A DNA stretch of 64,000 nucleotides from an uncultured Marinobacterium sp. (GTDB lineage Bacteria > Pseudomonadota > Gammaproteobacteria > Pseudomonadales > Balneatricaceae): positions 348,016-412,015 of the forward strand of contig CANMWJ010000002.1 in NCBI GenBank assembly GCA_947501565.1, written 5' to 3'. The translations under genes were made by a program, and so were the position numbers. This document shows positions 6,184-56,665 of the stretch, piece after piece. How positions within the stretch are numbered: position 1 is the stretch's first letter; each line of letters starts with the position of its first letter. The notes under the pieces were generated by a model that saw only the letters and a program-made list of their open reading frames with translations, was not told the origin of the DNA and searched no databases.

Positions 6184-6216
6184 ACGGGTTCCTGTACTGA
6201 ATTAGATGCTATTTAC

Positions 6217-6247: not shown

Positions 6248-6276
6248 ATTTTAAGAGCTAAGTATAACCAGTTGAA

Positions 6277-7404: not shown

Positions 7405-7636
7405 CTCAATCACCTCAGTTCATGGTTCCCTTTTAGCGTAGCCTTTACACGCGGATTCAGCCCCTTAACAGGGGCGCCAAAACGCCGTGAGCGGCGCTTT
7501 GTAACTGAAATAAATGCAGCTAAAAGACGAAATACATGAATAATCCGCAACGCTTTTTAATAAAGAAGTCATAAAAACAGCCGAATGAGCATTCATAAAC
7601 ATATGAAATCCATTCAAGGAACATGGGTTGCGGTTT

Positions 7637-8023
7637 ATGATGACGTTAAAGCAGTTTCAAACGGGAAGTGCTGTTGCGGAGTACCTTCTCGCGCTTGTTC
7701 TGGTGCTGACAACCACCCTTATCGGGTTTGCATTTGTCAGCGACAATGTCACCAAAGAGATCAACTCTCTCACACAGGCCTTTCGGCCCTACCCACCTGA
7801 TGATGAATTGGAGTCAGCCGAAACCATCGTGCTTAACGATGAGTTTTTTTATAAGTACGGCGCTCCTGGAGCCGGCCCGGCAGAGCCGGACAGTTTTATC
7901 CGGTTGAATCCTGACGGCACGATCAGAATCTCCATTTCACCTGGAAACCTGATCCTTGGTGGTGCGATTCTGTTTGGTTTGATGTTATCGCTGCTGATCT
8001 ACCGGTTTGGTGTAAGGCGCTGA
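7637..8023 (+). CDS. Flp/Fap-pilin-like membrane protein with a long C-terminal extension
   Basis: N-terminal QTGSAVAEYLLALVLVL matches the Flp pilin G-x4-EY motif and hydrophobic helix. A second TM lies at the C-terminus. Start chosen at ATG 7637; the track TTG is at 7628. Confidence 0.45.
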   Translation: MMTLKQFQTGSAVAEYLLALVLVLTTTLIGFAFVSDNVTKEINSLTQAFRPYPPDDELESAETIVLNDEFFYKYGAPGAGPAEPDSFIRLNPDGTIRISISPGNLILGGAILFGLMLSLLIYRFGVRR

Positions 8024-8052
8024 TACCGCATCCGATACAGGTGAGCTTGGCG

Positions 8053-9381: not shown

Positions 9382-9398
9382 CACCACTCTTCCTGCTG

Positions 9399-10112
9399 TC
9401 ACCACTCTTCCTCTTCTGGCCGATAGACACCGGTACGCTGTTCTGCGCCGAAATAACTGGCGTTGGATTTAAGATGTTTGCCCAGTGCAGCGCGTGACGC
9501 TTCAGGCTGAGCAATCAGGAACTGCGCAATATGTCCGCAGATATAGGCTGTGCCGATACTGGCACCCGAGATCTCCCCGTCCAGACAGCGCACATGGGCA
9601 CCAAAGTCAGCGTATTGAGTGCCCAGCAACGACCACTCCTCTGGCGCACAACGTGCATCACCGGTCGTTCGCAGTACGCCGGGATAATGAGAGGGATACA
9701 CGGGGTCGCCTTTGGCTGGCGATGAGGCGCAAAGCAAAACGCCTTTTGCGACTGCTCGCTCAACGGCGTCGCGCAAAACATCGCGGTCAGTACGCAGGCC
9801 AAGGCTGAGGTTGATCACCTGCACGTCCTGCTCGACCAGCCAGTCGATCGCAGAGGCCACCTGTGCGGGCGTAGTGGTAAAGCGTTCGGAAAACACCTGT
9901 GCCATGTAGATCTGGGCCTTAGGCGCTAACCGATGGATCACGTCGACGATCTTGCTGCCATGGCCCAGAGTGTCGAGACTGGCGTCATCCATCCATAGGG
10001 CGTCGTCCTTCAGTACAAAGGCGGCTGAGTCAGTTACAAAGGATGCGTTATAGTCGCGGTAGCCGCTATCGACGATACCTACTTTAACAACCGCATTGCC
10101 CAGGTCAGTCAT
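9399..10112 (-). CDS. qhpE: Subtilisin-like S8 serine peptidase QhpE (gamma-subunit leader peptidase)
   Basis: VGIVDSG (Asp), HGS (His) and a Ser-containing block near the C-terminus. Short (237 aa), as expected for QhpE. Overlaps the qhpF stop by 8 nt. Confidence 0.65.
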   Translation of the reverse strand: MTDLGNAVVKVGIVDSGYRDYNASFVTDSAAFVLKDDALWMDDASLDTLGHGSKIVDVIHRLAPKAQIYMAQVFSERFTTTPAQVASAIDWLVEQDVQVINLSLGLRTDRDVLRDAVERAVAKGVLLCASSPAKGDPVYPSHYPGVLRTTGDARCAPEEWSLLGTQYADFGAHVRCLDGEISGASIGTAYICGHIAQFLIAQPEASRAALGKHLKSNASYFGAEQRTGVYRPEEEEW

Positions 10113-11880: not shown

Positions 11881-11943
11881 TGTAACCGGATGTAACAGTG
11901 GGCATTCGATCACTTTGTATGAAGATGTAACAGGTTGTAACGG
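11881..11943. promoter_or_regulatory. Array of TGTAAC / GATGTAAC direct repeats upstream of the qhpFEG operon
   Basis: TGTAACC-GGATGTAACAG ... GATGTAACAG GTTGTAACGG, with 10-bp phasing. Confidence 0.4.
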
Positions 11944-13886: not shown

Positions 13887-14127
13887 CGCCCACTCCACCT
13901 TATTGTTATTGTCTGGATTTGGGGTTGATCGGATTGGTAAAACACAGCGGTGTTACCAAACATGGATTCAAAAATACTAGCAGATTACGTTTCTGGATTC
14001 TCCTACCTGACAATCGCCGTATCCTCGATACGCGAAACGCATAAGGGTGGGCGGTGTAGCTAACGCAACCAGCCAACTACGCCGCCCTGCCGTCCCTGGC
14101 AATGGGGTAGAACGTTAAACGCGCTTC

Positions 14128-15646: not shown

Positions 15647-16804
15647 TTAACGAATAAAGACCTGGGATGTAGAGATCGCCATATCGCCACCCGGCAGCTT
15701 GATGTTGCCCAGTTTCTCCATGGAGTCAGCGTCGTAGATCGCCACGTCGTCGTAGGTACCGCCCAGATACACTTTGCTACCGTCGTGGTTCATGGCGATG
15801 CAGTAGTAGGAGTGATCCAGCTCGGCGGCTTTGATCAGCTTCTGCTGTTTCACGTCGTACTTCGCCAGACGGTTCAGCACGCCGAACACCAGGTTCGGGT
15901 CTTTTGGCGACTTCATACCGGTGAAGTAGATCTCGGTGATCGGGCCGAAGTCGGTGGTTTCGGTTTCACCGGTCTCCAGATCCACGTTCAGGTAGCCGTA
16001 GATCCAGTCGGCAGTGGCCAGATCCTGCTTCTCATCCTGAAAACGCGCGGTGGTGTAAAGGATGGTGAAGTCCTTGCTCGGGGTCTGGATTGGCCAGGCG
16101 TTCAGTACGTCCGGCTGCACGTACAGCGGGCGCTCCCAGTTGCGGCTAGGCAGGTGTACGTCGTATTTACCGGTTTTCACATCCATCTTGTAGATGTCGG
16201 CTCCAGCCATATACAGGCCGCCGTCTTTACCGGTTGCCATTACGGTTACCTGACGCGGTGCCGGGAAGGTACGGACCGGCTTTGCACCTTTGCCGTCTGC
16301 GGTGTTGTAGACCGCCAGATAGGTGTCCTGCACACGGTAATGGTCACGGTTCAGCTTGGTTGGGTTGTGCATCACGTACAGCTCTTTGCCGTCCGGACTC
16401 AGCGCCATGGAGAACAGCGATTTGGTGCGGACGCTGTTCTGTCGGTCTGAGAAGGTGGTGTGGAAACTGATACTGCAATCGTCCACGTTGATGCCGTACA
16501 CGTCCTCGTAGTGGTTGGTCAGCATGTAGACAGTCTTTTTGTCCGGTGCGACCTGCAGTACACCCGGGCCGTACGCGCCCGGTACCTTACAGGTTTTCAG
16601 GAGACTGTCGGTCTGCAGATCCAGAACATGGATCTGGTTCGGGTAGTTGGCAACCACCATGTACTCCTGCCCCGCTTTCAGCGCGGGGCCTACTTTCTCA
16701 GGAGCATCAGCGTAGGTAACACCGCTGGTCAGTGTAGCTCCAAGAATACCTGCACCGGCCATCAGGCTACGCAGGGTTTTGCGCATCTTGTTTTTGTTAT
16801 TCAT
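15647..16804 (-). CDS. qhpB: Quinohemoprotein amine dehydrogenase beta subunit (beta-propeller)
   Basis: 385 aa with a signal peptide. ~45% identical to the second copy at 37183..38343. Lies immediately downstream of qhpC. Confidence 0.8.
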   Translation of the reverse strand: MNNKNKMRKTLRSLMAGAGILGATLTSGVTYADAPEKVGPALKAGQEYMVVANYPNQIHVLDLQTDSLLKTCKVPGAYGPGVLQVAPDKKTVYMLTNHYEDVYGINVDDCSISFHTTFSDRQNSVRTKSLFSMALSPDGKELYVMHNPTKLNRDHYRVQDTYLAVYNTADGKGAKPVRTFPAPRQVTVMATGKDGGLYMAGADIYKMDVKTGKYDVHLPSRNWERPLYVQPDVLNAWPIQTPSKDFTILYTTARFQDEKQDLATADWIYGYLNVDLETGETETTDFGPITEIYFTGMKSPKDPNLVFGVLNRLAKYDVKQQKLIKAAELDHSYYCIAMNHDGSKVYLGGTYDDVAIYDADSMEKLGNIKLPGGDMAISTSQVFIR

Positions 16805-16822
16805 CGCTTTGTCCTGTGCTGG

Positions 16823-17149
16823 TTACTTCTTATCGGATGGGAACACGGTGCCCAGATTGCGCCAGCTCTCGCCGGAATCCAGTGCGTTTTCGTTCCAGTT
16901 GGTGTGCGTGTTCATCATGTCCGGCACCTGCGCAGGCCACCAACATGGATCGGCACAGCCATACAGGTCGGATTCCATCGGCTGACACAGGGAGGTTACG
17001 GAACCAAACGCATCGATCTCCCAGCCCGGGTCGGTGGTGGCGGCACAACCGGCCAGTGACTGCATCGCAACCACCTCTTCCACCTGATCTTCAGCAACCG
17101 CTTTGTCCAGCAGCTGCGCTTTGTTGTTTATCGCTTTCAGATGTTTCAT
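16823..17149 (-). CDS. qhpC: Quinohemoprotein amine dehydrogenase gamma subunit precursor (CTQ-bearing, thioether cross-linked)
   Basis: 28-aa leader [10 protein letters not shown]...EEVVAM followed by a core with Cys7, Glu16, Cys27, Asp33, Cys37, Cys41, Trp43 and Asp49, all at the spacings described for the Paracoccus gamma subunit. GGAGG SD. The track ORF extends further 5' to 17224. Confidence 0.85.
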
Positions 17150-17150
17150 A

Positions 17151-18644
17151 TCAGTTTGCCCTCCGAGGCAAAATGTATTGATCGATGAAGCCCGGGTTCT
17201 CGGCCATGATGCGTGCGTACACATCGATGCCGAAATCCACCCAATCCCTCATCAGATCGCAATAGTGGTAGGTAGGACGGGTCGCATCACCGTAACGGGC
17301 GTGGCTCTCGTGGTAACAGCCGCCGGAGCAGAGGTTACGAATACGGCAGGAGGCGCAACCGGTGTTGCTGCGGTCGAGCCGTTGCGAGAGGAAATCGCCC
17401 AGTTGGGCGTGGTCCACGCCGTTCTGAATGTCACCAAAGGTGTTCAGATCGGAGCCGGTGAAACGATGACAGAGGTTGAGATCGCCCTTGTGATCCACCG
17501 CCAGCATCTTCAGGCCTGCGCCACAGGGCAGCGCTTTCTTATGGCCTTCGTGCAGGTCGGTGATCAGCTGGTGCAGGTTGGAGAAACCGATGTTGCGGTT
17601 CTCCAGCGCGGCAGCGAGATACTGCTCACCCAGCGCCTTCATGTTGTCGAACACCTGCTTGAGCTCATCGTCGGTCAGATTGAAGTAGGAGACGTCACCG
17701 GATGTCACCGGTGCAAAACCCACCTCTGCAAAGCCCAGTTCGTTGAACAGGTGGTCCCAGATACCTACCACGTCGGTGGTGCCTTTGGTCAGGGTGACGC
17801 GGGCACCGATCGGACGGCGACGGTAACCGGCCAGCAGCATCTTCGCTTTCTGGCTCACCACGTCGTATGTGCCCTGCCCGCCCACGGTGATTCGGTTCTT
17901 ATCGTGTACCGCTTTGGGGCCATCCATACTCACGGAGAGACCGAAGTTGTGTTCCGACAGCCAGGCAACGATTTCCTCGTTGAGCAGCGTGGCGTTGGTG
18001 GTCATGGTGAACTCCACCCGCTTACCGCGTGCCGGAATCTCCCGTTCGCACCATGCCACCACCGATTTGATCAGTGGCAGATTGCTCAGAGGCTCACCAC
18101 CAAAGAAGACGATGTTGTACAGGTCCTCGTCCGGAGACTCGGCCAGCATCATCTCGATCGATTGGATCGCTGTCTCGAAGGTCATCTTCTTGCCCGCAGA
18201 GGGCTTGTCCAGATCTTCCTTGTAGCAGTAGGTGCAGCTCAGGTTACAACCGGTATTCACGTTCAGCACGATGGTGTTGAGCGGGAACTGATCCACCGAT
18301 TTAGCCGCGATCTCCTCGGTCAGCGGCGAGCCGTCGCTCACCACCTCCAGTGCCATCAGTTCGCGCAGGGTGTCCGCGATCTGTTGGGCTGTGAAGCTAT
18401 CGTTCAGGTGGCGGATCAGATCCGGGCTGGTCCACTTCTCAGTGCTGTTCACGTCGCCGCGCAGGGTATCGATCACCCCGGCGGTGACACCGTCCAGCTC
18501 AAACAGAGAGCTGGTTGGGATATGGAACAGCAAGCGGCGTTCGCTCACCTGCACCAGGTGCAGGTTATGCTCGACCAGATTCAGCACGGAGCTGTTGTCT
18601 AAAGACAGCCCTGAGCCGCTGTTAAGGTGTAGTTGGGCGCTCAT
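17151..18644 (-). CDS. qhpD: Radical SAM/SPASM maturase QhpD (forms gamma-subunit thioether bonds)
   Basis: CNLSCTYC radical-SAM cluster motif and a C-terminal SPASM Cys cluster (CGAG...[14 protein letters not shown]). GAGGAGG SD. Confidence 0.85.
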
Positions 18645-18697
18645 GGCAACCTCCTCGTCATACCTCGGTTAAACGTTGTCAGGTGCAATCGCTACGC

Positions 18698-20299
18698 TTA
18701 TGGCAGCGGCGCATCGTTCCAACGTTGAACCGTAACGATCAGTTGGCCATCGCCCTGCAGGGTCTGGTCACCATCCTTAACAGACGCCACCACTTTCAGG
18801 TTACCGGCGTTGTTGGTGGACATGCGGCGTTCCGGGTTAGGCCCGGCATTGCCCGGCGTAAACACACCACTGGTAGCATCCATACGACCGGCAAAGTACA
18901 CGTCGTTGTCCGCTCTCGCCGCTTCGTCGAACGGCTCCACATGCCAGCTGGCAGGCAGGTAGCCGATACGGATGTCGTCCTCAGTACCTGGCTTACCGTC
19001 AGCACCCGCGCCCCAGGCTTCCGCTTCGAAACGGGCCTGTACTTTCGGTGTGCTACCGCCGTTACCGCCCACTCGGGCGATGGTGAACGCCGGTTGTACT
19101 TTGATGGAATCAACCTTGTTGTAGACGGCGAACTGGCCACCGTTGACGCCACCCACAGTGACGGAGTTGGCTGAGGTGGTGGCGTTCGCGTCGGCTTTCG
19201 CCAGTACGGTGACGCTGTTGTAGGTGCGTTTCAGTACTTTCTCCACGCTCACGCCGTTACCCAGGGAGACGCGCCCTTTCAGGCCTGTGCCCACGATGGT
19301 GACTTCGGTGGATTCACCCGCTTTCAGGTTTTGCGGATAAACAGCGACGATCTGGTGGTTGCCGGTGGTCGCTTTCGCCGCACTGAACTCCATACCGCGC
19401 TCATCGTGTGCCGCTTCAAATACACGGCCACTCAGGTTCATGCCGTCTTTGCTCGCTGCCAGCACCTGACGGGTAATCACACCGCCCAGGTCTATCTCAG
19501 CGCGCCATTCGAAACCGGTATAGACGATCGCTGTGCCGCTGCCTTTGAGCGGTGTGCCATCGGCCCAGGTGCCTTCCATGCTTACGCTGTAGCGGTCCCC
19601 CGCTTGCTGAGTAATCGTCATCAGGCCACTGCCGTCACCACGGCCCGGCTGATGCACGGCGAAGCTCCACTGACCGACAAAGTCGGGTTTAGCGGCGGAC
19701 TGCCACTGATCCCAGCTGTTGCTGTCCATCGGGAACATCTTGCTGAGTTTAGGCACCATCTCGTTCAACGCGATCGGGAACCAGTCGCGGTCACGCGCCA
19801 GCGCCTGATATTCGGTGGATGGCCACTGACCCAGATGGAAGTGCACCAGATGCTCCCACTCAGCTGCCGGACGGCGCTGCAGCCCGACGCGGGCACCAGA
19901 GTGGCAACGGGCGCACATCTCTTCAAACTGGCTGTCTTCGAAGGATTCCATGGTGTCGAGGCGACGTTCCATGGCGTAGCGGTAGGTGGAAGTTTCTTCC
20001 GGGGCGAGGCCCTGACGATCTGCCAGGTACTTCACCACGGTGGCACGATCGTCATCGCTGATCTGCAGACCGTGCATCATCTGCATACGGCCGATGGTCA
20101 TCAGCCAGCCTTCCGGCGTTTTGCGCTGGTGGCTGATACGGCTCCATTGGGGAGCAGCCTGATTCTCTTCAGTGTGACAGGCGAGGCATTTGCCCTGCAC
20201 GATCTTAACCGCGTCTTCCTGCGCGTAGCTCGGTAGCACGGTGGTCGTCAGAGCGGCGGTAATCGCCAGCGCCAACGGGCTTTTTATTATTGTGTTCAA
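18698..20299 (-). CDS. qhpA: Quinohemoprotein amine dehydrogenase alpha subunit (dihaem cytochrome c + beta-sandwich domains)
   Basis: Two CxxCH motifs (CLACH, CARCH) plus a signal peptide. TTG start at 20299 is preceded by a perfect AAGGAGG SD. Confidence 0.85.
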   Translation of the reverse strand: MNTIIKSPLALAITAALTTTVLPSYAQEDAVKIVQGKCLACHTEENQAAPQWSRISHQRKTPEGWLMTIGRMQMMHGLQISDDDRATVVKYLADRQGLAPEETSTYRYAMERRLDTMESFEDSQFEEMCARCHSGARVGLQRRPAAEWEHLVHFHLGQWPSTEYQALARDRDWFPIALNEMVPKLSKMFPMDSNSWDQWQSAAKPDFVGQWSFAVHQPGRGDGSGLMTITQQAGDRYSVSMEGTWADGTPLKGSGTAIVYTGFEWRAEIDLGGVITRQVLAASKDGMNLSGRVFEAAHDERGMEFSAAKATTGNHQIVAVYPQNLKAGESTEVTIVGTGLKGRVSLGNGVSVEKVLKRTYNSVTVLAKADANATTSANSVTVGGVNGGQFAVYNKVDSIKVQPAFTIARVGGNGGSTPKVQARFEAEAWGAGADGKPGTEDDIRIGYLPASWHVEPFDEAARADNDVYFAGRMDATSGVFTPGNAGPNPERRMSTNNAGNLKVVASVKDGDQTLQGDGQLIVTVQRWNDAPLP

Positions 20300-20369: not shown

Positions 20370-20386
20370 AGCGAAGCCCGTGCCAA
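20370..20386 (-). promoter_or_regulatory. Putative sigma-54 promoter for qhpADCB (cluster 1)
   Basis: Minus-strand TGGCACGGGCTTCGCT has GG-N10-GC spacing. The -12 element is TCGC rather than TTGC. Lies 70-85 nt upstream of the qhpA start. Confidence 0.35.
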
Positions 20387-20714: not shown

Positions 20715-20730
20715 TGGCACAGCCCTTGCG
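20715..20730 (+). promoter_or_regulatory. Sigma-54 (RpoN) promoter of the aldehyde dehydrogenase gene
   Basis: TGGCAC-AGCCC-TTGCG is a consensus -24/-12 element. Located 45 nt upstream of ATG 20775. Confidence 0.6.
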
Positions 20731-22322: not shown

Positions 22323-22877
22323 TTAGCAACGCCTGCACCCAACGGCTTTTGGGTTGTAATCCATCACATTTCCTTTCCCGTCCACCTCCAGATGGCAACA
22401 ATCCTCGAATAGATCGCGCAGCTGTACCCTGCCCCGCTGCACGCGGGATTTCAGCGCGGAATAGCTGATGCCCAACTCTTCGGCATAGCTTTTTTGAGCG
22501 CGACCTTCGATATCGATTGCACGCAGAAGTTGTGCTGTTTCCGGCGGTAGCGCATCGATGAACGGAAGGATGCAGCCGCTAAGTGAGGCCTGCACCCTTT
22601 CAGGTTCAGATTCAAGGTTCCCGTACCACAGGTCATCCGCTTCTACCGGGGGCTGGCGACCACGCTTGCGGTAGAAATCGATGACCGTATTGTTTGCGAG
22701 TCGCATCAGCCAGGGTTTAAGTTTGTCGCGCGTCTGCAAGGTGCCGATCTGCTGATGGGTTTTCAACAGGATCTCCTGAAGCAGATCATCGGCGTCTGCC
22801 GGATTCGCTATTTTAGCGTGTAGCAGTGCTTTCAGGTTATCTCCGTAGGCCTGCCAGACCTGTTCAATATTCGTCAT
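22323..22877 (-). CDS. ECF-type RNA polymerase sigma factor with C-terminal Cys-rich extension
   Basis: Sigma-70 regions 2 and 4 (DLLQEILLKTHQ..., YAEELGISYSALKSRVQRGR). A CCHLEVDG...CRRC tail follows. Confidence 0.7.
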   Translation of the reverse strand: MTNIEQVWQAYGDNLKALLHAKIANPADADDLLQEILLKTHQQIGTLQTRDKLKPWLMRLANNTVIDFYRKRGRQPPVEADDLWYGNLESEPERVQASLSGCILPFIDALPPETAQLLRAIDIEGRAQKSYAEELGISYSALKSRVQRGRVQLRDLFEDCCHLEVDGKGNVMDYNPKAVGCRRC

Positions 22878-37182: not shown

Positions 37183-38343
37183 TCATTTCAGGCGTGCAAG
37201 ACGCAGATCGGAGGTGGACATATCACCGGTCAGCTGGATGCTGCCGATCTTCTCCAGCGTCGCTGCATCGTGTACAGAGATATCACTGGATGTACCACCG
37301 ATGTAGATGGTCTTGCCGTCACCGGTCATGTTGATGTTGTAGTAGGTGTGGTCCATCGCCTGCACACCCATGGTCTCACCGGTTTTCAGGTTGTGCTTGG
37401 AGAGCTGGTTAAATGAACCGTACAGCACATCTTTATCGTTCGGGTCGGTTACCCAGTTAAAGACGATAAACTCAAACGGTACGGTTTCGAAGCTCTCCAC
37501 CTTGCCGGTTTCGGTATCGATACGAACGTGGCCCCAGAGGAAGTCAGCCTGAGATTCGTCGCCCGGCGCACCGTTCCAGCGAATGGTGAAGTACGGCATG
37601 ATGAACTCGCCCACGTGCTCACCCATGGTATGCATCGCAAACGCATCAGGTGGAACCCACTTGTCCGGTGCACGATCCCAGTTCTGCAGCGCTTTGATCA
37701 TTCGCATCTCACCGGTTTTTGGATTGATCGCTTTCAGATCGCCGCCGCCCAGAATCACTTCACCGTTCTGCATGGAACCGATCTTGGTGATTCGACGGTC
37801 AACCGGGAAGCTACGTACCGGCTTGGCGTTCAGGCCGTCATCGGTGTTGAACACCGCCAGACGTGGCGCCATAGTTTCGAAACGGTCGGACAGCTTACGT
37901 ACCGGGTTCTGTACGGTGTACAGCTCTTTACCGTCAGCGCTGACCGCCATGGAGATAAAGCTCTTCACGGTTACGTTGTCGTAGGACTGCTTGGCGGAGA
38001 ACTTGATCTCACAGTTGGTGATATCGAAGCCGTATACGTCTTCCCACTTGTTGGTCATCACGTATGCGATGCGACCGTCCGGAGACATTGCGATACCGCC
38101 GTTGCCGAAGATACCCGGTACGTCACAGGTACGTACCAGCTGGTTGGTTTCGGTATCAACGATGTGCAGCTGGTTCGGACGGGTTACGGTCAGGATGTAC
38201 TCGTGACCACCCGCCTTCATGCCATTGATGGTGTCCGGCGTCTGGGCAACTTCGGTATTTACGGTGCTACAGCCCGCGAGCAACGCGGAAGCACCGATCG
38301 CGCCGGCCAATGCCGCACGCTTGAACATATTCGTCAGTTTCAT
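37183..38343 (-). CDS. qhpB: Quinohemoprotein amine dehydrogenase beta subunit, paralog 2 (possible lipoprotein)
   Basis: Collinear with 15647..16804. N-terminus ...ASALLAGCSTV contains a lipobox-like L-A-G-C. GGAGG SD. Confidence 0.8.
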   Translation of the reverse strand: MKLTNMFKRAALAGAIGASALLAGCSTVNTEVAQTPDTINGMKAGGHEYILTVTRPNQLHIVDTETNQLVRTCDVPGIFGNGGIAMSPDGRIAYVMTNKWEDVYGFDITNCEIKFSAKQSYDNVTVKSFISMAVSADGKELYTVQNPVRKLSDRFETMAPRLAVFNTDDGLNAKPVRSFPVDRRITKIGSMQNGEVILGGGDLKAINPKTGEMRMIKALQNWDRAPDKWVPPDAFAMHTMGEHVGEFIMPYFTIRWNGAPGDESQADFLWGHVRIDTETGKVESFETVPFEFIVFNWVTDPNDKDVLYGSFNQLSKHNLKTGETMGVQAMDHTYYNINMTGDGKTIYIGGTSSDISVHDAATLEKIGSIQLTGDMSTSDLRLARLK

Positions 38344-38358
38344 CGGATTAAGCCTCCA

Positions 38359-38679
38359 TCACTCTTCCGGGAAGACGCTGTCGATCTTGCGCCAGTCTTC
38401 GTTGGCCTTAGCCACATCTTGTGACCAGTTCGGGTGACTGCTCATGGTGTCTGGCACCTGAGCGGGCCACCAACAAGCGTCGGCGCAACCGTAAAGGTCG
38501 GATTCCATCGGCTGGCAGAGAGAGCCCAGGCCACCGAACGGGTCTACTTCCCAGCCCGGATCGTTTACGGAGGTACAGCCCACGATGGACTGCATCGCTA
38601 CAACCTCTTCCACCTCGTTCTGGGAGGTCGCCTGGTCGAGCATTTTGGCTTTTTTATTGAACGACTTAAGGTGTTTCAT
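38359..38679 (-). CDS. qhpC: QHNDH gamma subunit precursor, paralog 2
   Basis: Leader [10 protein letters not shown]...EEVVAM, then QSIVGC...E...LCQPMESD...[14 protein letters not shown] with Cys/Glu/Asp/Trp spacing identical to copy 1. AAGGAG SD. Confidence 0.85.
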
Positions 38680-40117
38680 TTAAGAACTCCTTCTAGGAGA
38701 TACGTAAGCATCGAAGAACGCCGGGTTCTCGAGCATGATCCGCGAGTACGCCTCTACGCCGAAGTCCACCCAGTCTCTGAGCAGATCGCAGTAGTGGTAC
38801 GAAGGTCTCGCGGCATCGCCGTACTTCGCATAACTTTCGTGGTAACAACCACCAGAACAGATGTTGCGGATGCGGCAGGTTTCGCAGCCCGTGTTGCTGC
38901 GATCAAGACGCTGTTCGACAAACTCGCCGAGACTGGTCTTGTCGATCCCCTGGTCGACATCACCAAAGGTAGGCAGGTCCGATCCGGTGAAGCGGTGGCA
39001 AAGGTTGATACCGCCTTTGGTATCCACCGCCAGCAGGCCGACACCGGCACCACAAGGCAGCTGTTTCTTGTTGCCTTCGTGCAGGTCGGTCATCAGCTGG
39101 TGCATGTTGCCGTAACCAAAGTTACGGTTGTCCAGCGCCGCTTCGAGGTACTTTTTACCAAGGCGTTTCATGCCTGCGAACACCTCTATCATCTCCTCGG
39201 ACGTGAGGTTGAAGGAAGTGATGTCGCCGGAGGTCACGGGGCCAAAGCCCACCTCGGCAAAACCCAGACCGCTTAGGTGCTCAAAGATCGCTTCCACGTC
39301 GGTGATGCCGCGTGTCAGTGTCACACGACAACCCACTGGGCGCGCCGTATAGCGCGACAGCAGCATGTCGACCTTCTGTTTCACCACATCGTAGGTTCCC
39401 TGACCGCCCACGGTAATCCGGTTTTTATCGTGCATCGCCTTGGGGCCATCCATGGAGATGGTCAGGCCGAAGCGATGTTCGTTAAACCAGTCCACCAACT
39501 CTTCATTAAGCATGGTGGCGTTGGTGGTCATGGTGAAGCTGACCTCTGATTCCAGCGCGGCAAAACGCTCTTCACAATAGGCCACCACTTTGCGGATCAG
39601 CGGCATATTGGTCAGCGGTTCACCGCCAAAGAAAACCACGTTGTACTGACGCTGGTCGGGGGACTCCTCAAGCAGCATCTCGATCGACTTCACCGCCGTT
39701 TCGTAGGACATCTTGTTGCCCGCCGACGGTGTAGTCAGGTCCTCTTTGTAGCAGTAGGTGCAACTGAGGTTGCAGCCGGTATTGGTGTTGAGCACGATCG
39801 TCGTCAGCGGAAAGTTTTTCACTTTCTGCGGTTCGTGATTGATCTGCACTGCACCACCGTCGGAAACGATACGCAGAGACTTCAGCTCCTCAATCGTATC
39901 CATCACGTCTTCCGGCTGATAACGGCCATCGAAACGCTCACGAACCATCTGCGCAGTCACCCTTTCCTGCTCTGCAAACAGATCGATCAGATCACGGCTC
40001 AGACCGTCCAGCTCAAACAGACTGCTGGTCGGCACGTGGAACATCATCTTGCGCGTGTCCACATCCACCAGATGCATGTTTGGCTTCACCAGGGATAAAG
40101 AACCCATATCTACCTCA
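38680..40117 (-). CDS. qhpD: Radical SAM/SPASM maturase QhpD, paralog 2
   Basis: CNLSCTYC and a SPASM C-terminus. ATG 40117 (MGSLSLVKPNMHLV) has an AAGGGTGAGG SD; the track GTG is at 40140. Confidence 0.8.
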
Positions 40118-40169
40118 CCCTTATTGTTATTTCGCGTCACGCGAATCTGTCTGGAGGTTTATCCGCCGA

Positions 40170-41771
40170 TTACTCGATAATCGGTGTAACAAATTTCTGT
40201 ACGGTTACCAGCAGGTGCGCTTCACCCTGAACACTGCTGTCACCGTCCTGTACGGTGCCGACTACGGTCAGGTTGCCCACGTTGTTGGTCGACATCTTAC
40301 GTTCCGGGTTCAGACCCGCATCACCCGGCGTGAAGATACCGTCACGGTCGATGGTGCCTGCGTATTTGATGTCGTTGTCGTGCTTTGCAATCTCATCAAA
40401 CGGCTTGAGGGACCAGGCCGCTGGCATATACCCCAGACGCAGATCGTCATCAGTACCCGGCTTACCGTCAGCACCGGCGGTGTAACCCACGGCACGATAA
40501 GCAGATTTCTGTTTCGGAATCGGACCACCGGCACCACCGATACGGGCGATGGACTCAGATGGCGTGATCTCGACACGATCCAGTTTGTCGTATACCGCCA
40601 GTGCAGCGTTCGCACTAACGCGCCCCACTTTCACATCCTTAGCGCCAACACGGGCGTTAGAGGACGCTTCAACCAACAGCTGAATGCGGCTGCTGTCGCG
40701 AGACACAACACTGATCAGCTTGAGGCCACTGCCGAGCTTCACGTTACCCTTGAGGTTATTGCCGGATACGGTGATTACCTTGCGCTCACCCTGTTTGATG
40801 TAGGACGGCGTTACAGCAGCGATTGCGTTGCCTTTAACCGCCTTCACGCTGCCACCGATGATCTCGTCATCGCGTTCGAACATACGCCCTTCCAGCGCCA
40901 TGCCATCAGCAGAAGCCGCCAGCACCTGACGCACTTTTACGCCGTCGATGGTCAGGCTTGCACGCCACTCGTAGCCCGCATATACCACCGCTCGGCCTTC
41001 GCCCGTCAGCGGCGTACCGTCTGCGTAAGTACCTTCAACCGCCACAGCATAGTCATCGGCAGATTGTTTGGTTACACGCAGGGTCGCATCGAAGTTGCCT
41101 TTACCTGGCAGATAGCCGGTCATTGCCCAGCTGCCGTCCAGATCTTTCTTGGCGGCGCTCTTCCAGCTGTTCCAGGCATCGCTGTTGAATGGGTAGTCTT
41201 TCGCCAGCTTCGGCGCAACGTTAGTCAGTGCGATATCAAACCATGCGCGGTCACGGGCACCGGCGTGCAGTTCAGCCGTTGGGATCTGACCCATGTGGAA
41301 GTGAACCAGGTGTTTCCACTCGTCTTCGGTACGGCGCTGCAACGCGATACGGGCACCGGAGTGACAACGTACGCAGGTCTCCTGCAGCAACTGATCGAAT
41401 GACTCCACCACGTTTGGTTTTTTCTCCAGCAGATAACGCAGACCATCGGTTTCGGACGGTGCCAAACCTTGCGTATCGGACAGATATTTAACCAGCGTGC
41501 GTTTCTCGTCCGGTGAGATCACCAGGCCGCGCTGCTGTTGCATGCGGCTGATCGTCATCATCCAGCCTTCTGGGGTTTTGCGCTGCTCACTGATGCGCGA
41601 AAACGGCGTCGCCGATTCACCGGTCTCCGTATGACACGCCAAACAGCGATCGCGAATGATGCGTTCCGCATCCGCATCCGCAGCCTGAGCAGGTGCTGCC
41701 GCCAAACCCATCAGGGCCAGTGCACCGGTTCCCAGAAGTGCGCGCGTTGTCTTGTTATTATTCAAGGCCAT
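40170..41771 (-). CDS. qhpA: QHNDH alpha subunit (dihaem), paralog 2
   Basis: CLACH and CVRCH motifs. Signal peptide MALNNNKTTRALLGTGALALMGLAAAPAQA. AAGGAG SD. Confidence 0.85.
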   Translation of the reverse strand: MALNNNKTTRALLGTGALALMGLAAAPAQAADADAERIIRDRCLACHTETGESATPFSRISEQRKTPEGWMMTISRMQQQRGLVISPDEKRTLVKYLSDTQGLAPSETDGLRYLLEKKPNVVESFDQLLQETCVRCHSGARIALQRRTEDEWKHLVHFHMGQIPTAELHAGARDRAWFDIALTNVAPKLAKDYPFNSDAWNSWKSAAKKDLDGSWAMTGYLPGKGNFDATLRVTKQSADDYAVAVEGTYADGTPLTGEGRAVVYAGYEWRASLTIDGVKVRQVLAASADGMALEGRMFERDDEIIGGSVKAVKGNAIAAVTPSYIKQGERKVITVSGNNLKGNVKLGSGLKLISVVSRDSSRIQLLVEASSNARVGAKDVKVGRVSANAALAVYDKLDRVEITPSESIARIGGAGGPIPKQKSAYRAVGYTAGADGKPGTDDDLRLGYMPAAWSLKPFDEIAKHDNDIKYAGTIDRDGIFTPGDAGLNPERKMSTNNVGNLTVVGTVQDGDSSVQGEAHLLVTVQKFVTPIIE

Positions 41772-41960
41772 CACTCCTTAAGTTTTATTTTTCTGACGAC
41801 TTGTCTCTTCAGACTTCTGCAGGTCTGGTCGATCAAAAACCGTCGATCCGCATCCCTGTAATCCGGTATCAACCCGTCCAGCCGGGCCCGATACATTCAT
41901 AAGGGTGCGTTATCTAAGTTACGCGGGTGGTGTAAATAAAATGCCGCGCTTTTGTTAGAA

Positions 41961-41990
41961 GATGTAGGTAGATGTATCGAGATGTATCGA
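41961..41990. promoter_or_regulatory. Three tandem 10-bp direct repeats GATGTAGGTA GATGTATCGA GATGTATCGA in the qhpA2 / response-regulator divergent intergenic region
   Basis: Exact 10-bp phasing, as used by OmpR/TorR-family winged-helix regulators. Similar arrays occur at 11881..11943 and 56626..56665. Confidence 0.45.
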
Positions 41991-42139
41991 GCGATCAAAT
42001 TTGTAAAATAACCCTTTGTTTTGTTTGATAATCCCGGTGTCTGAGAGTAAATATAAAGGGGTTCAGAAGGCATCTTAGAGTGATTTTCAGAGATGCGCCT
42101 CCGAATTAGTAACATTTATTCAACAACGGATCGGTCACT

Positions 42140-42871
42140 ATGGCTTCAGACACTTCAGCCCCAGCACACATTCTGATTGTGGAAGATGATTTCGCCTCGC
42201 GCTCGCTTTTGGTGAGTTACTTCGAGAAAGAGGGCTATAGAATTACCGAGACGGAACAAGCCGACGACCTGGTAATTCTGGTGGAAGAGCAGAAAGTCGA
42301 CCTGGTCCTGCTGGATATCAATCTACCGGGAAAGGATGGGCTCACCCTCACCCGGGAACTGCGTGCTACCTCCCGCGTAGGTATCATTCTGGTCACCAGT
42401 AAAGGTGATGAGATCGACCGTATCGTTGGCCTTGAGCTGGGCGCCGACGATTACGTGACCAAACCGTTCAATCCGCGTGAACTGCTGGTGCGTGCTAAGA
42501 ATCTGCTCTGGCGCGTGCGCAGTCAGGATAAAGATCCTCGCGAAAACGCCCGTCAGATCGCAATCTGGAACTTCGAGGGCTGGTCTTTGGATGGCAGCAA
42601 ACGACTGCTCACCTCTCCCGATCAGACTAGCGAACGTCTGCCCGAGGGGGAGTTCAAGCTGCTACACGCGTTGATCAGCCACCCCGGACAGGTGCTCTCC
42701 CGCGACCAGCTGATGGACGCAATCCATGACCGTGAATGGACCCCCAACGACCGTTCGGTGGATGTACTCGTCGGTCGCCTGCGCCGCAAACTACGCGACA
42801 ACCCGGCCGATCCCCATTTTATTCTCACCGCCCACGGTGCAGGCTACATGTTTGCCGGCGAGCTGGAGTAA
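42140..42871 (+). CDS. OmpR/PhoB-family response regulator (TorR/ArcA-like)
   Basis: REC domain (ILIVEDD...DLVLLDINLPGKDG) plus a winged-helix Trans_reg_C domain (LRRKLRDNPADPHFILTAHGAGYMF). Confidence 0.85.
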   Translation: MASDTSAPAHILIVEDDFASRSLLVSYFEKEGYRITETEQADDLVILVEEQKVDLVLLDINLPGKDGLTLTRELRATSRVGIILVTSKGDEIDRIVGLELGADDYVTKPFNPRELLVRAKNLLWRVRSQDKDPRENARQIAIWNFEGWSLDGSKRLLTSPDQTSERLPEGEFKLLHALISHPGQVLSRDQLMDAIHDREWTPNDRSVDVLVGRLRRKLRDNPADPHFILTAHGAGYMFAGELE

Positions 42872-42877
42872 CACCTG

Positions 42878-45800
42878 ATGATCAATCTGCCCGGCTACCG
42901 GATCCTTAAAAATATCTACCGTGGCCGACGCAGCAGCATCAGCCGTGCCGTGCGTTTGCGCGACAACCTGCCCGTCATCATCAAAACACTGACCACCAAC
43001 CAGCCGAATGCCGATGAGGTCGGCCAGCTTCACCACGAATTTGAGCTGTTAAGCACCCTTGATATTGAGGGTGTTATCAAACCGGTTGCGCAGGAGAAAA
43101 CTGAACCCCAGGTTGCCACCATTTTTCACGACCACGACGGCGTATCGCTGCGTGATCTGATCGAACTGAAGCAGTTCTGCTGGCACGAATGGCTACCCAC
43201 TGCCGTGAGATTGGCGGAGCTGATCGGGCGTGTGCATGACGCCCAGATCATCCATAAGCAGGTGACACCGGATAACATTCTCGTTAACCCGCACACCGGC
43301 GAGTTGCAGATGATCGACTTCACCCAGGCGACCCATCTGCAGAGGGAACAGGCAAGCTGGCACTACAGCCAGATCGACAGCGAAACACTGCCCTATATCG
43401 CGCCGGAGCAGACGGGACGTATCAACCGCGCAATCGACTACCGCACCGATTTCTATGGCCTGGGTGCCACCCTCTATGAGTTGATGACCGGCCGCCCCCC
43501 CTTTCAGGAGGAGGACCGTCTGGCGCTGGTACACAGCCATATCGCCAAACAACCGGTACCGCCCCATGAGATCAACAGCGCGCTGCCGCCGGTAGTTTCC
43601 CAGATCATCATTAAATTGCTGGCAAAGGATGCGTCGGAGCGTTACCAGTCGATCTTTGGGCTGACGCAGGACCTGCGCACCTGTCAGGAGGAGTGGCAAC
43701 GTAACCAGCGCATTGCCAGTTTCAGCATCGCCTCCGATGACCGCTCCGAACGGTTTGTAATCCCTCAGCGTTTGTATGGCCGTGCAACCCTGATAAAACG
43801 GCTGCTAAGCAGCTATGACCGCACCGCGCTGGGTCAGAAAGAGATCATCCTAATCTCCGGCTATGCCGGGATAGGCAAATCCAGCCTGGTGCACGAGATC
43901 CGCCAGTACATCAATGCCCGCGGCGGCAGCTTTATCAGCGGTAAATTTGACCAGTTCCGTCGCAACCGTCCCTACGCTGCAATCCTGTTTGCGTTACAGG
44001 GCCAGATTCGTCAGCTGCTTACCGAATCGGAATCCAGCATTCATACCTGGCGAATACGCCTGCTTGAAGCGCTGGGTGATAACGCGCAGGTATTTATCCG
44101 CCTGATCCCGGAATTGGAACTGATCATCGGTAAACAACCCGATGCGCCCAAGCTATCGCTGGCCGAGGAGCAGAACCGTTTCTCGCACCTCTTTATTCGC
44201 TTGTTGCGAACCCTGGCCACAGAAGAACGCCCGCTGGTGTTGTTCCTTGATGATCTTCACTGGGCCGATCTGGCGTCGATCAGCCTGATCAACACGTTGG
44301 CACGCAACGATCAGCTGGGCCACCTGATGCTGGTTGGCAGTTACCGTGATCAGGAGGTCAGCGCTACTCACCCTCTGAGTACCACCTTTGCCAAGTTACG
44401 TGATGGCAGGGTTAACCTGCGCGAACACCGGCTTGAGCCCCTTACCCTATCGCAGGTAAATCAGCTGATCGCCGATACCCTGCATGTAACGCCGGATCGC
44501 TGCGCCTCACTGGCGCATATCAGCATGGAGAAAACCCAGGGTAACCCGTTTTTCCTCAACCAGTTTCTGGCGGCACTCTACGAGGATGGGCTGATCTACT
44601 TCGCACAGGGTCACTGGTGCTGGGATGAGGACCGGATTCGCGATCAGGAGATGACCGATAACGTGGTCGACCTGATGGTGGGCAAGATCCAGAAGTTATC
44701 GCCAAACACCCAGAAAATCTTGCAGATGGCCGCCTGTATCGGTAGCCCTTTTACGCTGCGTATTCTATCGATCGTGCATGAACGCACACCTCAGGATACT
44801 GCCGCAGACCTCTGGCAAGCGATGGCGGAGCGACTGATACTCCCGCTGGACAACAGTTATCGCCTGCACCCGCAGGGAGATGCGGCGGCGTCACGCTACC
44901 GCTTTGTACATGACCGTGTGCAGCAGGCTGCTTATAGCCTGATCAGTGACGATGAGCGTTTGCCACTGCACCTGAAGATCGGTCGACTGGCGCTGGATCA
45001 GTTTGCCCCTGAGGAGTTTGAGAACCGTATTTTCGAGGTTACCAACCACCTCAATATCGCCGCAGATCTGATTACCGAACCCGATCATCGGCTGCAGCTT
45101 GCAGAGTTAAACCTCAAAGCAGGCGTGGTTGCACGGGATGCCGCTGCATTTGAAGCAGCTTACGAGTACTTCAATACCGGGCTGGAGATGTTGCCCGCCG
45201 ACTGTTGGCAAACGCACTACGAACTCAGCCTGGCGCTTCACACCAATGCGACGGAAACAGCGTATATTCGCTCCGACTTCAGTCAGCTGGAGACACTGGT
45301 CGGCATCGTACTGGAGCACGCCCAGAGTCTGCTGGAGAAGGTACGGCTGTATGAGATCCTGATCCAGGCACATGTGTCGCGCAATGAGTTCGAAACTGCG
45401 CTGGATACGGCGTTGCAGGTGCTGGATCTGCTCGACATCAAAATCCCGAAACATCCAGGGGCGATATATACCTGGCTGACACAAAGTAAGACTCATCTGC
45501 AGTTGAAACGTCTGCCAGCCAACCGCGTGATGCAGATGCCCGCGATGGATAACCCCAACATACTGGCCGCCCTGCCGATTATGGCAAGTATGTTTGGCGC
45601 CATTAAGTTCTCAAGCTCCGAACTACGTCCGCTGATCATGGCGAAGCAGGTAGACCTGACCCTGCGTTACGGGTTGAGCCCCTCCTCCGCACAGGCGTTT
45701 GCGGGTTACGGTGGTGTCCTCTGCGGCAAGTTTAACGATCTGGATCAGGGCTACGCCCTTGGTCAGGCGGCGCTGGCGATCGATGACCGACTGCCATCGC

Positions 45801-48800
45801 GGCTTACCCACCACAAAACGCTGTCACTCCATAACGCCTATATCCGTCACTGGAAAGAGCCGCTGTCAGCGTGTCTCGATTCCCTGAAAGAGGGGTACCA
45901 CCTGGCGCTGGATTGCGGTGATATCGAATGGGGTACCTACTGCATCGCGGCCTACATCCAGTACCGCTTTACCCTGATGGAGGATCTGGATAAGAGCCAA
46001 TCTGAGCTTGAGCCGTACATGCTCAAAATGCAGGAGAGTGGCCAGAAGCAATCTGAAGAATATTCTCGCTTAGCTCTGCAAGCTATTGATTGTATTCAAG
46101 GTAATAGTGATTCTCCTGTCGAGATGAACGGCCGGTTCTACAATGAGGAATCAGCGCTTGCAGACTATCAGGAGAACAATCACCGTACAGCGGTCTGTGT
46201 CCATCATTTCTACAAGGCATTCCTGCACTACATCATGGGTGAAACCACACAGGCAGCCCAACACGGTCGTATTGCTGAAGAGTATATCTCCTCGATCTAC
46301 GGTACCTACACACAACCGTGGCTACTGTTTGTTTCTGCAATGGCTCACCTTTCAGAGGTGCCAGACGCCAGCATCCTGCATCAACAGACGCTACTGAGCC
46401 ATGCACGCCACATACTCAAGCGAACCCGTTATTGGGCGCGCCACAGTCCCGTCAACCATCATCACCATGCGTGTATGCTGGAGGCTGAGATAGCACGTGT
46501 GACCAAGCGCTATACCAAAGCGATGGACCTTTATGAGATTGCGATCAGCGCCTGTCAAAACAGCGAAAACAACTTTGATGTTGCGATCACCTACGAGCAG
46601 GCCGCAAAGCTGTATCTGGAATGGGACAAGAAACAGATCGCCCGCAACTATCTGAAGGAATCCGTCTCTGTCTATCGCAGGATCGGCGCAACGGCGAAAG
46701 TCGATCAGATGTATCGTGTTTATGCCGATCTGCTGGAGCAAACAGACAGCAGTGCCACGACCACTCAGCCCTACCGTAACGGTGTTAGTAGCCCTAGCAG
46801 TCCGAATAATCAGGAGATCGACATCACATCGGTGATCAAGGCATCCCATGTGATCGCGGATGAGATCGTACTGGACCGCCTGTTGAGTCGGCTGATGAAG
46901 CTGGCGCAGGAGAACGCTGGGGCGCAGCGCTCCATTCTGGCCCTGAAGCGTGACCTGGAACTCTGCATCGAGGCGGAAGCCAGTCTGGATAGCGATACCC
47001 GTTTCTTCGCGGGCACGCCGCTCGATCAGGGTTTCGACATTCTGCCCGTCAATATTGTGCATTACGTCGCACGCACCAAGGAGACGGTGGTGCTGGGGAA
47101 CGCGCTGGAACATGAGATGTTCATGCACGACCGCTACATCCGGGAACATAACCCACGCTCTCTGCTCTGCATGCCGATTCTTTACCACGGTGAACTGACG
47201 GCAGTGCTCTATCTGGAGAACAACGAAAGTTCGGACGTGTTTAACCGGGAGCGTCTGGAAACCCTACAGATTTTGTCGGCACAAGCGGCGATCTCGATTG
47301 AAAACGCCAAGTTATATTCCAGCCTCCAGCAGTCTGAACAGGAGTTTCGATCGCTGTTTGAGAACGCGGTAGAGGGGATCTTCCGCGCAACACCCGATGG
47401 CACCTTTGTGTCTGCCAACCCCGCGCTTGCGCAGATTCTCGGTTACGCCTCGCCGGATAAGTTTCTTAAAGCGATTACCGATATCGCCAGCCAGTGCTTT
47501 GAAGACCCGGCATCCCTTGAGCATTTCATGTCGTTCCTGAATACCGATAACGAAGTGATCAACTTTGAAACCCGGTGGCTGGATGCCAACAAGCAGCCGC
47601 TGGATGTATCGATCTCCGCCCATCGGGTGCTGAACGATCAGGGAACGGTGCTTTACTACGAGGGCTCGTTGACCGATATCAGTGAGCGTAAGAGCCGAGA
47701 GGTTGCCGAGCAGGAACGTCTTGCCGCTATCGTGGCACAGGAGAAAGCTGAAGCAGCAAGTGATGCTAAGTCGCAGTTCCTGGCTACCATGAGCCACGAG
47801 ATCCGGACGCCGATGAACGGCATTCTCGGTATGGCGCAGCTGCTGGAGCGGGGTCACCTTTCGGAAGAACAGCGCAATCAGGTACGGGCGATCTACCGCT
47901 CGGGGCAGTCGTTGCTGTCGATTCTCAACGATGTATTGGATTTCACCAAAGTAGAGGCCGGCCAGGTAACCCTGGAAGCCCACCCATTTACGCTGAAAGC
48001 ACTGGTCGATGAGAACGAAGCGATATTAAAGCCTCTGGCAGAAGATAAGGGGCTGGACCTGATCGTACGCTACGATACGGCGTTGCCGGATATGATCGTT
48101 GGTGACCGTCGCCTGCTTAACCAGATTCTGATGAACCTGTGTGGCAACGCCCTGAAGTTTACTGATCAGGGTTTTGTCGCTCTGCGCGCACGTCTGGTCA
48201 GCCGAAGCAGCGATTCAGCTCTGATTCGCTTTGAGGTCGAGGACAGCGGTATCGGGATTGCGACCGACGCTCAGGAGCGCATCTTTGAACACTTCAGTCA
48301 GGCCGACAGCTCTATCACCCGCCGTTTCGGCGGAACCGGGCTGGGGTTATCGATCTGTAAACGACTGGTCGAGCAGCAGCAGGGCCAGATCGGTTGTGAC
48401 AGCACCGCAGACAAAGGCAGCTTGTTCTGGTTTGAGATCCCCTTCCCGGTTGCCAGTGATACCGTTGCATATTCTTCCCAGACGGCAGATGCCGCACCTA
48501 TGACGCCAAAGCAGATCCTGCTGGTCGAGGATACGGAGATTAACCAGCAAGTGACCGCCGGGTTGCTGGAAGCGGACGGCCATCAGGTAACCATAGCCGA
48601 CGACGGTTATACCGCCCTCTCCCTGCACAGCGATAACCACTATGACCTGATTTTGATGGATATCCATCTACCGGATATGGACGGTATGGAAACCACCCGC
48701 CGTATGCGCAGCCATCCCAATGCTGACAAAGCGGCAGCGAAGATCGTCGCGTTTACCGCGTCAATCACTGAGGAGGAGATCCATAACTATTTTGAAGCGG

Positions 48801-49300
48801 GTGTCGACGATGTGCTGGCGAAACCTTTGCAATATGAAGAGTTGCGTCGAATGCTGAAAGAAGATGACCACTACGAGTCTCTGCCTCAGCAGACGGTGTC
48901 GCCCGTCGATTGCGCTATCACGCAAAGTGAAAAATATTCATCCCCTTCAGATAACGATCTTCTCAATCTCAATTTGCTTAATCAACATCAAACGATGCTA
49001 GGTCAGGAACGCTTTAACACGCTTATCGACCAGTACAAAACACAGGCAAACGACCTCTTCAGTCAGCTGGAGGACGCCGGACGGCGAGGCGACCGCGGAA
49101 AGGTGCGCCAGGTTGCGCATAAACTTGCCGGCGCCAGTTCTAATTTTGGTTTGGAAAAGCTCAGCGCGATCAGCAAGTTAATAGAAGATGGGTGCGAGTT
49201 CCCCGGCGATCACGATTTTATTTCACAGATAGAGAGCGCCCACGAAACCTATAATGAGAGCATTACTGAGCTGACATGCTTCGTAAATGACGCAACGTGA
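42878..49300 (+). CDS. 2140-aa multidomain sensor: Ser/Thr protein kinase - AAA/STAND ATPase - TPR-like region - GAF - PAS - HisKA/HATPase - REC - HPt (hybrid histidine kinase)
   Basis: Kinase subdomains ([26 protein letters not shown]). P-loop [14 protein letters not shown]-box [10 protein letters not shown], with N (NLCGNALKF) and G boxes ([15 protein letters not shown]). REC domain ([10 protein letters not shown]...[14 protein letters not shown]). C-terminal HPt ([11 protein letters not shown]). Confidence 0.85.
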
Positions 49301-56489: not shown

Positions 56490-56625
56490 CGTGTTCGTCC
56501 TCCGCAATAGCGTATTTTTATTTGTTGTTATGCTGAATCGGTGCGCTATACAGGAAGGGGAGCTGCTAACCGCATCAATTCATGACGTAAAGGTTACGTG
56601 GTGGCTGTAAACAGGATTTGCGGGC

Positions 56626-56665
56626 GATGTAGAGAGTTGTGCGTAGATGTAACGAGATGTAGCAC
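56626..56665. promoter_or_regulatory. 10-bp phased GATGTA direct repeats upstream of the porin-ALDH operon
   Basis: GATGTAGAGA GTTGTGCGTA GATGTAACGA GATGTAGCAC. Confidence 0.4.

Follow-up and report, generated by a model that had tools for sequence, protein, structure and literature searches.

Phased TACATC boxes mark a candidate amine-catabolism regulon for a TorR-like response regulator and its giant hybrid kinase

Response regulators of the OmpR/PhoB family bind DNA as winged-helix monomers, arranged head-to-tail on tandem half-sites of 10–11 bp that are filled hierarchically; at the promoters served by OmpR (ompF/ompC) and PhoB (pho boxes), the proximal site either replaces or abuts the -35 element. 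Winged-helix regulators of this kind typically recognise 10-bp direct repeats in tandem; the sites of sigma-54 activators are usually inverted repeats. TorR of E. coli also autoregulates torR, acting through boxes 1 and 2. The tor boxes themselves (CTGTTCATAT) are quoted in PMC9239176 and, in the E. coli torR–torC region that we read directly (locus L214), start at positions 5974, 5984, 6005 and 6027; the hexamers of the first three precede that of box 4 by 53, 43 and 22 bp, and the TTCATA of box 4 ends 9 nt before TAAGAT.

For the amine dehydrogenase QHNDH, the literature describes an amine-inducible qhp regulator (PMC7876137, PMC5023235), qhpR being termed an ‘n-butylamine inducible transcriptional regulator’ (PMC7876137). 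Our search of the literature found no report that ties QHNDH to phased boxes or to two-component control of the TorR type, and nothing usable on the pea regulator of P. putida.

The stretch of DNA analysed here, 64 kb in length and referred to throughout as the window, carries three arrays of phased repeats that an earlier note proposed to mark the regulon of an adjacent response regulator and giant kinase, taking in QHNDH cluster 2, the maturation genes qhpFEG and a porin–aldehyde dehydrogenase (ALDH) operon. The comparative evidence agrees with that core claim and, judging from sequence comparison, we think it probable that the adjacent TorR-like regulator binds to, and activates through, the boxes at qhpA2D2C2B2, porin–ALDH and qhpFEG.

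The regulator–kinase pair and its candidate target genes

The genes concerned are as follows, with assignments from Pfam (and NCBIfam for the porin–ALDH operon):

8053–11835, minus strand: target operon 3, qhpF + qhpE + qhpG
15647–20299: QHNDH cluster 1, qhpA1D1C1B1
37183–41774, minus strand: target operon 1, qhpA2-qhpD2-qhpC2-qhpB2 (QHNDH cluster 2)
40170–41774, minus strand: qhpA2
42140–42871, plus strand: response regulator, OmpR/PhoB family, TorR/ArcA clade, REC + Trans_reg_C
42878–49300, plus strand: hybrid sensor kinase, 2140 aa
53698–56507, minus strand: target operon 2, beta-barrel porin-like gene + ALDH

The gene context described in the earlier note agrees with Pfam throughout, and the regulator is, as that note had it, the only gene in the window for an OmpR-type winged-helix DNA-binding protein. 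The window holds two QHNDH clusters and a single set of qhpFEG maturation genes, cluster 2 having no qhpFEG of its own. By Pfam, qhpF encodes an ABC exporter, which we also take to be its role. A subtilisin-like protease and a flavoprotein monooxygenase are encoded by qhpE and qhpG respectively (Pfam; roles in PMC7876137). The porin-like ORF is 437 aa as listed, its true start likely being Met7, near 56489; it is 60% identical to a porin of Motiliproteus that itself has boxes upstream, and the porin orthologues match the Alginate_exp family weakly.

Both domains of the regulator are recognised with confidence (Response_reg, E = 1.2e-29; Trans_reg_C, E = 2.9e-24). Against the NCBIfam model for TorR it scores 274.6 bits, 0.4 below the cut-off of 275 and hence a borderline case falling just short, and it is 46% identical to E. 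coli TorR. Its recognition helix, PNDRSVDV[LM][IV]GRLR[RK]KL, hardly varies among the 120 best orthologues and is unlike that of TorR (SVDVLVGRLRRKL here versus TVDVLIRRLRHKL in E. coli), which fits the use of a different box.

The kinase combines Pkinase(-like), AAA_16 STAND ATPase, TPR, GAF, PAS, HisKA, HATPase_c, REC and Hpt domains. Its C-terminal transmitter (residues 1611–2131) resembles the HisKA–HATPase–REC–Hpt transmitter of E. coli TorS, scoring 472.7 bits against the TorS model TIGR02956, below the cut-off of 676.5. The first 1600 residues, by contrast, are unrelated to TorS: where TorS has a periplasmic, TorT-dependent sensor domain, the protein here has a cytoplasmic Pkinase-like/STAND/TPR/GAF/PAS module. 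The idea that this is a multi-input protein (STK, STAND ATPase, GAF, PAS) stands as to its 2140-aa length and its domains, with a reservation over the STK domain (residues 1–307; window 42878–43800), in which the VIIK lysine and the APE motif are retained, HKQ replaces HRD and DFT replaces DFG. Because the HRD catalytic Asp is missing, this domain may not be an active Ser/Thr-kinase input; from its sequence, it is probably a pseudokinase or scaffold.

Architecture of the box promoters

The arrays, and the elements that we assign alongside them, are as follows (distances in the direction of the target gene):

11881–11943, minus strand: site 3 array, non-canonical layout, upstream of qhpF
41951–41990, minus strand: site 1 distal array, four boxes in exact 10-bp phase
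41931–41936, minus strand: site 1 proximal box, TTTACA (TGTAAA on the plus strand)
41916–41921, minus strand: candidate -10 of the qhpA2 promoter, TAACTT, 9 nt after TTTACA
56626–56665, minus strand: site 2 distal array, TACATC / TACATC / CACAAC / TACATC in 10-bp phase
56606–56611, minus strand: site 2 proximal box, TTTACA (TGTAAA on the plus strand), 22 bp beyond box 4
56591–56596, minus strand: site 2 candidate -10, TAACCT, N9 after TTTACA

All three arrays are found exactly where the earlier note placed them and, as it stated, are direct rather than inverted repeats in exact 10-bp phase, with at least two consecutive copies at every site. Location and phase therefore stand; strand and orientation, the number of boxes and the layout of site 3 need to be redrawn, and a proximal box was missed. 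As drawn in the GATGTA sense, all three arrays lie on the strand opposite to their target genes, upstream of minus-strand genes, so that the functional reading is the reverse complement, TACATC; read toward those genes (minus strand), the consensus box is kTTACATCTg, with a 10-bp period.

At site 1, the plus strand carries GATGTA at 41961, 41971 and 41981, and then a degenerate fourth box in phase with these, previously overlooked: TTTGTT at 41951–41956, or AACAAA on the minus strand. Read towards qhpA2, the boxes are gaTACATCtc / gaTACATCta / ccTACATCtt / ctAACAAAag, followed by the likewise overlooked proximal box, its TACA core 22 bp downstream of box 4. Site 2 repeats the arrangement, with GATGTA/GTTGTG/GATGTA/GATGTA at 56626–56661 of the plus strand and a proximal TTTACA that had also escaped notice. 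The canonical promoter consists of four phased boxes, a 22-bp step, the proximal TTTACA, N9 and TAnnnT, the last of these likely a -10 element; its invariant spacing is the basis on which we infer that assignment. Taken as a -10, it would place transcription starts near 41909 for qhpA2 and near 56584 for porin–ALDH. An alternative reading of TTTACA as a -35 element with a 17-bp spacer was rejected: 17 bp on, no -10-like sequence is conserved, in contrast to the invariant TAnnnT at N9.

This geometry is very close to that of torR–torC. In both systems decameric direct repeats are read toward the target, with the regulator gene divergent from the target operon, and a well-conserved adjacent distal pair precedes one or more weaker boxes in the middle and, last, a proximal one. 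Measured to the latter, the hexamers stand at 53/43/22 bp in E. coli and at 52/42/32/22 bp here, where there is one box more. In both, 9 nt separate the end of the proximal hexamer from the likely -10 (TAAGAT in E. coli, TAnnnT here), and under the TTTACA-N9-TAnnnT reading this hexamer would occupy about -27 to -22, the torC equivalent being derived from sequence rather than from a mapped start. The boxes themselves differ (CTGTTCATAT versus kTTACATCTg), although two registers each give a partial match (TTCATA against TTTACA, or against TACATC), as do the targets: amine dehydrogenase, porin and ALDH genes here, the torCAD TMAO reductase operon in E. coli. The half-sites of OmpR (GTTACA / AACATC-like) appear to resemble our box in the same orientation; the regulator clade, signals and regulons of the OmpR/PhoB systems differ from those described here.

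Could the regulator instead act mainly as a repressor, or use site 1 to autoregulate the regulator–kinase operon, rather than activate qhpA2? The distance from box 1 to the regulator start codon is fairly constant across loci (110–162 bp; about 150 bp here, versus 18 bp in E. coli), that from box 1 to qhpA varying between 78 and 432 bp, and because the former is nearly constant site 1 could also, or instead, act on the regulator–kinase operon. A box at -27 to -22 could, moreover, block RNA polymerase, and TorR provides a precedent at torR. We nevertheless consider this reading unlikely, as an identical layout, its TTTACA-N9-TAnnnT pointing at the gene, occurs at porin promoters and at the qhpA promoter of Motiliproteus with no regulator gene opposite, and the geometry matches that of torC, a promoter that TorR activates. 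A scan for sigma-70 consensus -35/-10 pairs across 41775–42139 found none, as would be expected of an activator-dependent promoter. We infer activation over repression at these promoters.

Several features of the region around site 1 deserve separate mention. The 5′ leader predicted for qhpA is long and highly variable, from ~60 nt to >400 nt (430 nt in Marinobacterium arenosum, locus L083 9382–9810; 41775–41909 in the window). Rfam returned nothing for 41600–42200, so that neither the leader nor the intergenic region shows any known RNA element by this search, and a blastn search of plasmids with the intergenic region gave no match. The single terminator-like hairpin (41927–41947) overlaps the proximal box of site 1 and is probably incidental. 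On the other side, some 60–80 bp upstream of the regulator start, a TTGCTAGACT-like element is conserved in several genera (L083, L084 and L085), with cTTAGAGT at about 42075–42083 as its counterpart in the window; this element, separate from the box array, may be the -10 of the regulator–kinase promoter.

Conservation and specificity of the boxes

Orthologous loci were chosen via the regulator protein alone (exact-protein look-ups), with no reference to DNA. Orthologues at least 75% identical occur in many Oceanospirillaceae and some Rhodocyclaceae, several of them named TorR by NCBI; those in the loci taken are 75–88% identical and come from ten genera: Pontibacterium, Marinobacterium, Amphritea, Neptunomonas, Nitrincola, Oceanospirillum, Motiliproteus, Vreelandella, Halopseudomonas and a Rhodocyclaceae genome. 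In every one of these loci the regulator gene is followed by a kinase of the same architecture, mostly a single ORF of 2115–2226 aa, split between two or three neighbouring ORF calls in two cases (L081 and L208). No tor genes were found in the orthologous loci examined. The qhpA(DCB, FEG) genes are divergent to the regulator gene in 8/10 genera. Eight of the ten also have a porin gene in the locus, which forms a pair with an ALDH gene in Amphritea, Neptunomonas, Nitrincola and the Rhodocyclaceae genome.

Canonical boxes precede qhpA in Pontibacterium, Marinobacterium, Amphritea, Neptunomonas, Nitrincola, Motiliproteus, Oceanospirillum and the Rhodocyclaceae genome, and precede the porin gene in the four with a porin–ALDH pair; the promoters of Vreelandella and Halopseudomonas are degenerate, with 2–3 recognisable boxes. 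In Motiliproteus, where qhpA lies 8 kb from the regulator gene, the canonical site sits at qhpA, and a nine-box array is found upstream of the porin gene. The Halopseudomonas MAG (L208) has an integrase island in place of the qhp operon, directly upstream of the regulator gene (300–9324: phage-type integrase, Phage_GPA replication protein, AAA_21), with a tRNA-like sequence in the intergenic region.

The consensus of the 11 promoters from outside the window reads tTTACAtct.gTTACAtcTgc..ACAAcTt.gcACAt...gC...aActT.aTTTACAcCcc.g...TA.ctT. In an alignment of 20 promoters the invariant columns are TACA (box 2), ACA (box 3), ACA (box 4), TTTACA and TA...T, the spacers being variable; the TA...T columns as well as T34 and A52 lie outside every search pattern used.

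The boxes also stand out within the window. GATGTAN4GATGTA, with up to one mismatch, is matched four times against 0.2 expected, a count reached in 0/100 shuffles, and the composite TACA-N6-TACA-N7-ACA-N7-ACA-N16-TTTACA has two matches (sites 1 and 2) against 0 expected, with 2 mismatches allowed. When a 10-bp box PWM, trained on promoters of the other genera only, is scored as three phased boxes, the three sites are the top three arrays in the window (site 2, 29.2 bits; site 1, 28.5; site 3, 25.8), the next-best reaching 9.9 bits. The null maximum over 200 Markov randomisations has a mean of 13.4 and a highest value of 20.3 bits, and the maximum in 1.36 Mb of unrelated control loci—those around paralogous OmpR-type regulators from a scan of a genome collection with our regulator, to which they are at most 51% identical among the matches listed—is 23.8 bits. 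Neither the composite nor a relaxed version with three of the four boxes has any match in these 1.36 Mb.

Scanning metagenomes with the composite (20 bases) gave 8 informative loci of 80 among the matches listed, which serve as examples of gene context rather than as a measure of enrichment. Most of the listed matches are AT-rich microsatellites or unrelated tandem repeats, so that the composite alone is unspecific in low-GC DNA. In the eight informative contigs the composite lies upstream of qhpA or of porin(–ALDH), with TTTACA-N9-TAnnnT retained in all eight; the qhpA cases are divergent from a regulator 77–78% identical to ours and its kinase, and in the porin cases an ALDH gene follows wherever the contig is long enough. 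Separately, one metagenome contig (L139; ERZ1643251 NODE-1476) carries at ~2790–2950 a long run of ~10-bp GTTACA / TTTACA repeats at 54% GC, with no qhp or regulator homologue nearby; this could be an iteron-like or regulator-binding array.

The unspecific metagenome matches are what might be said for regarding the repeats as chance, as low-complexity sequence or as a cause of DNA bending, with no specific regulatory role. We regard this explanation as very improbable and effectively refuted by the conservation of box cores across genera while spacers diverge; the window, randomisation and control-locus statistics and the confinement of the arrays to three functionally linked gene sets also speak against it. 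The boxes are significant, conserved in sequence, and exclusively associated with the regulator–kinase pair and its target genes. As they are conserved in many marine bacteria, always near the regulator and giant kinase, they are very probably binding sites for the regulator.

Site 3, sigma-54 and the probable wiring of the two QHNDH clusters

Site 3 departs from the canonical layout. On the minus strand its TACA cores lie at 11939, 11929 and 11919, in phase, then after a 25-bp step at 11894 and 11884, again in phase (on the plus strand, GATGTA/GTTGTA at 11924–11939, TGTAAC at 11881 and GATGTAAC at 11889); it has neither the canonical spacing nor the conserved TAnnnT. In two relatives with 81% identity in qhpF (L213 and L212), none of the five box cores has shifted and the spacers have diverged; the layout in L213 is that of the window. 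In L212, qhpFEG lie in another genomic context, with no sigma-54 activator gene, and the boxes are retained; because the cores persist despite that other context, they belong to the qhpF promoter. Boxes are present at stand-alone qhpFEG (window, L212 and L213), and none are found before qhpF in genera where qhpFEG directly follow qhpB. Together with the position of the Motiliproteus site, at qhpA, this indicates that the sites track the target genes rather than the regulator gene. The regulon logic of the earlier note, in which the maturation genes would be co-induced with QHNDH cluster 2, is supported by these sequence comparisons.

The site 3 array begins 18 bp past the stop codon of a sigma-54 activator gene, and at so short a distance read-through from that gene into qhpFEG is possible. 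It also bears on a further explanation, namely that the boxes are real and are bound by another protein, either a different OmpR-family regulator or this sigma-54 activator. OmpR-type regulators are certainly numerous (4066 homologues at E<=1e-40) and the window covers 64 kb of the genome; a porin gene in Neptunomonas, like site 3, adjoins such an activator. Yet the regulator–kinase pair is found in every sufficiently long box-carrying locus examined (Oceanospirillaceae and the Rhodocyclaceae genome), the sigma-54 activator is absent from most box loci, with L212 retaining site 3 boxes where no activator gene is present, and tandem 10-bp direct repeats suit winged-helix response regulators. 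We therefore think it improbable that another protein is the principal binder, and retain the adjacent TorR-like regulator as the preferred one.

Cluster 1 is organised differently. Two divergent sigma-54 promoters (TGGCAC-N5-TTCGC) lie between qhpA1 and a StyD-like ALDH gene, ALDH1: TGGCACGGGCTTCGC at 20371–20385 (minus strand) and TGGCACAGCCCTTGC at 20715–20729 (plus strand), the sequence of the qhpA1-side promoter being conserved in L213. No boxes were found at cluster 1 or its L213 orthologue. A search for sigma-54 promoters at the three box sites found none, good matches occurring only at cluster 1. From this arrangement, cluster 1 is probably driven by the GAF-PAS sigma-54 activator encoded at 11961–13898, and the two QHNDH paralogues would on that basis use different regulators. 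This activator and qhpR resemble the TorR-like regulator in being encoded beside the operon and in their known or presumed control of amine-induced qhp expression, and differ from it in regulator class. The qhpFEG genes have two-component boxes and no sigma-54 promoter, though cluster 1, with its sigma-54 promoters, has no second maturation set in the window. As to ALDH1 itself, the start listed for its ORF (20574) precedes the gene's promoter and has probably been placed too early, the Aldedh domain beginning at residue 99; immediately downstream of ALDH1 lies a gene for an ECF-type sigma factor (Sigma70_r2 + r4_2; 22323–22877, minus strand).

For the box promoters we propose the following sequence of events. 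The soluble 2140-aa hybrid kinase would sense an amine-related cue through its STAND/TPR/GAF/PAS region and pass phosphate from His to Asp to His (Hpt) and on to the regulator. Once phosphorylated, the regulator would bind head-to-tail at the well-conserved distal pair of boxes (kTTACATCTg), occupancy then spreading to the weaker boxes 3–4 (CACAAC-type) and finally to the proximal TTTACA, which ends 9 nt upstream of the putative -10, in the position otherwise held by a -35 element. RNA polymerase would be recruited there much as by TorR at torC and PhoB at pho promoters.

Taken at this level, the system represents a new operator and regulon, both well supported, for a regulator of known type, and its mechanism is conventional for OmpR/TorR-type proteins rather than new. 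It supplies a testable operator—a consensus, a five-position architecture, predicted start sites and a three-operon regulon—for a conserved, unstudied pair of response regulator and mega-kinase. For QHNDH biogenesis and amine catabolism, it offers a likely inducible promoter and a co-regulated porin–ALDH pair. Two paralogous QHNDH clusters in one genome are probably wired differently, one to a sigma-54 activator and the other to a TorR-like two-component system, and it is the latter whose boxes are carried by the sole qhpFEG maturation set in the window. For signalling, the promoters provide a reporter for an uncharacterised Pkinase–STAND–GAF–PAS hybrid kinase.

On a wider view, we lean slightly towards seeing here a widespread branch of the TorS/TorR phosphorelay, ranging over Oceanospirillaceae, some Rhodocyclaceae, Halomonadaceae and Halopseudomonas, in which a giant cytoplasmic sensor module would have replaced the periplasmic TMAO sensor and the tor-type geometry would have been retargeted, through the new box kTTACATCTg, to a compact regulon for amine catabolism that comprises QHNDH and its maturation genes together with an aldehyde dehydrogenase and a dedicated channel in the outer membrane. 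If true, such mega-kinases would here have their first defined output regulon, and with it a tractable system for finding out what they sense.
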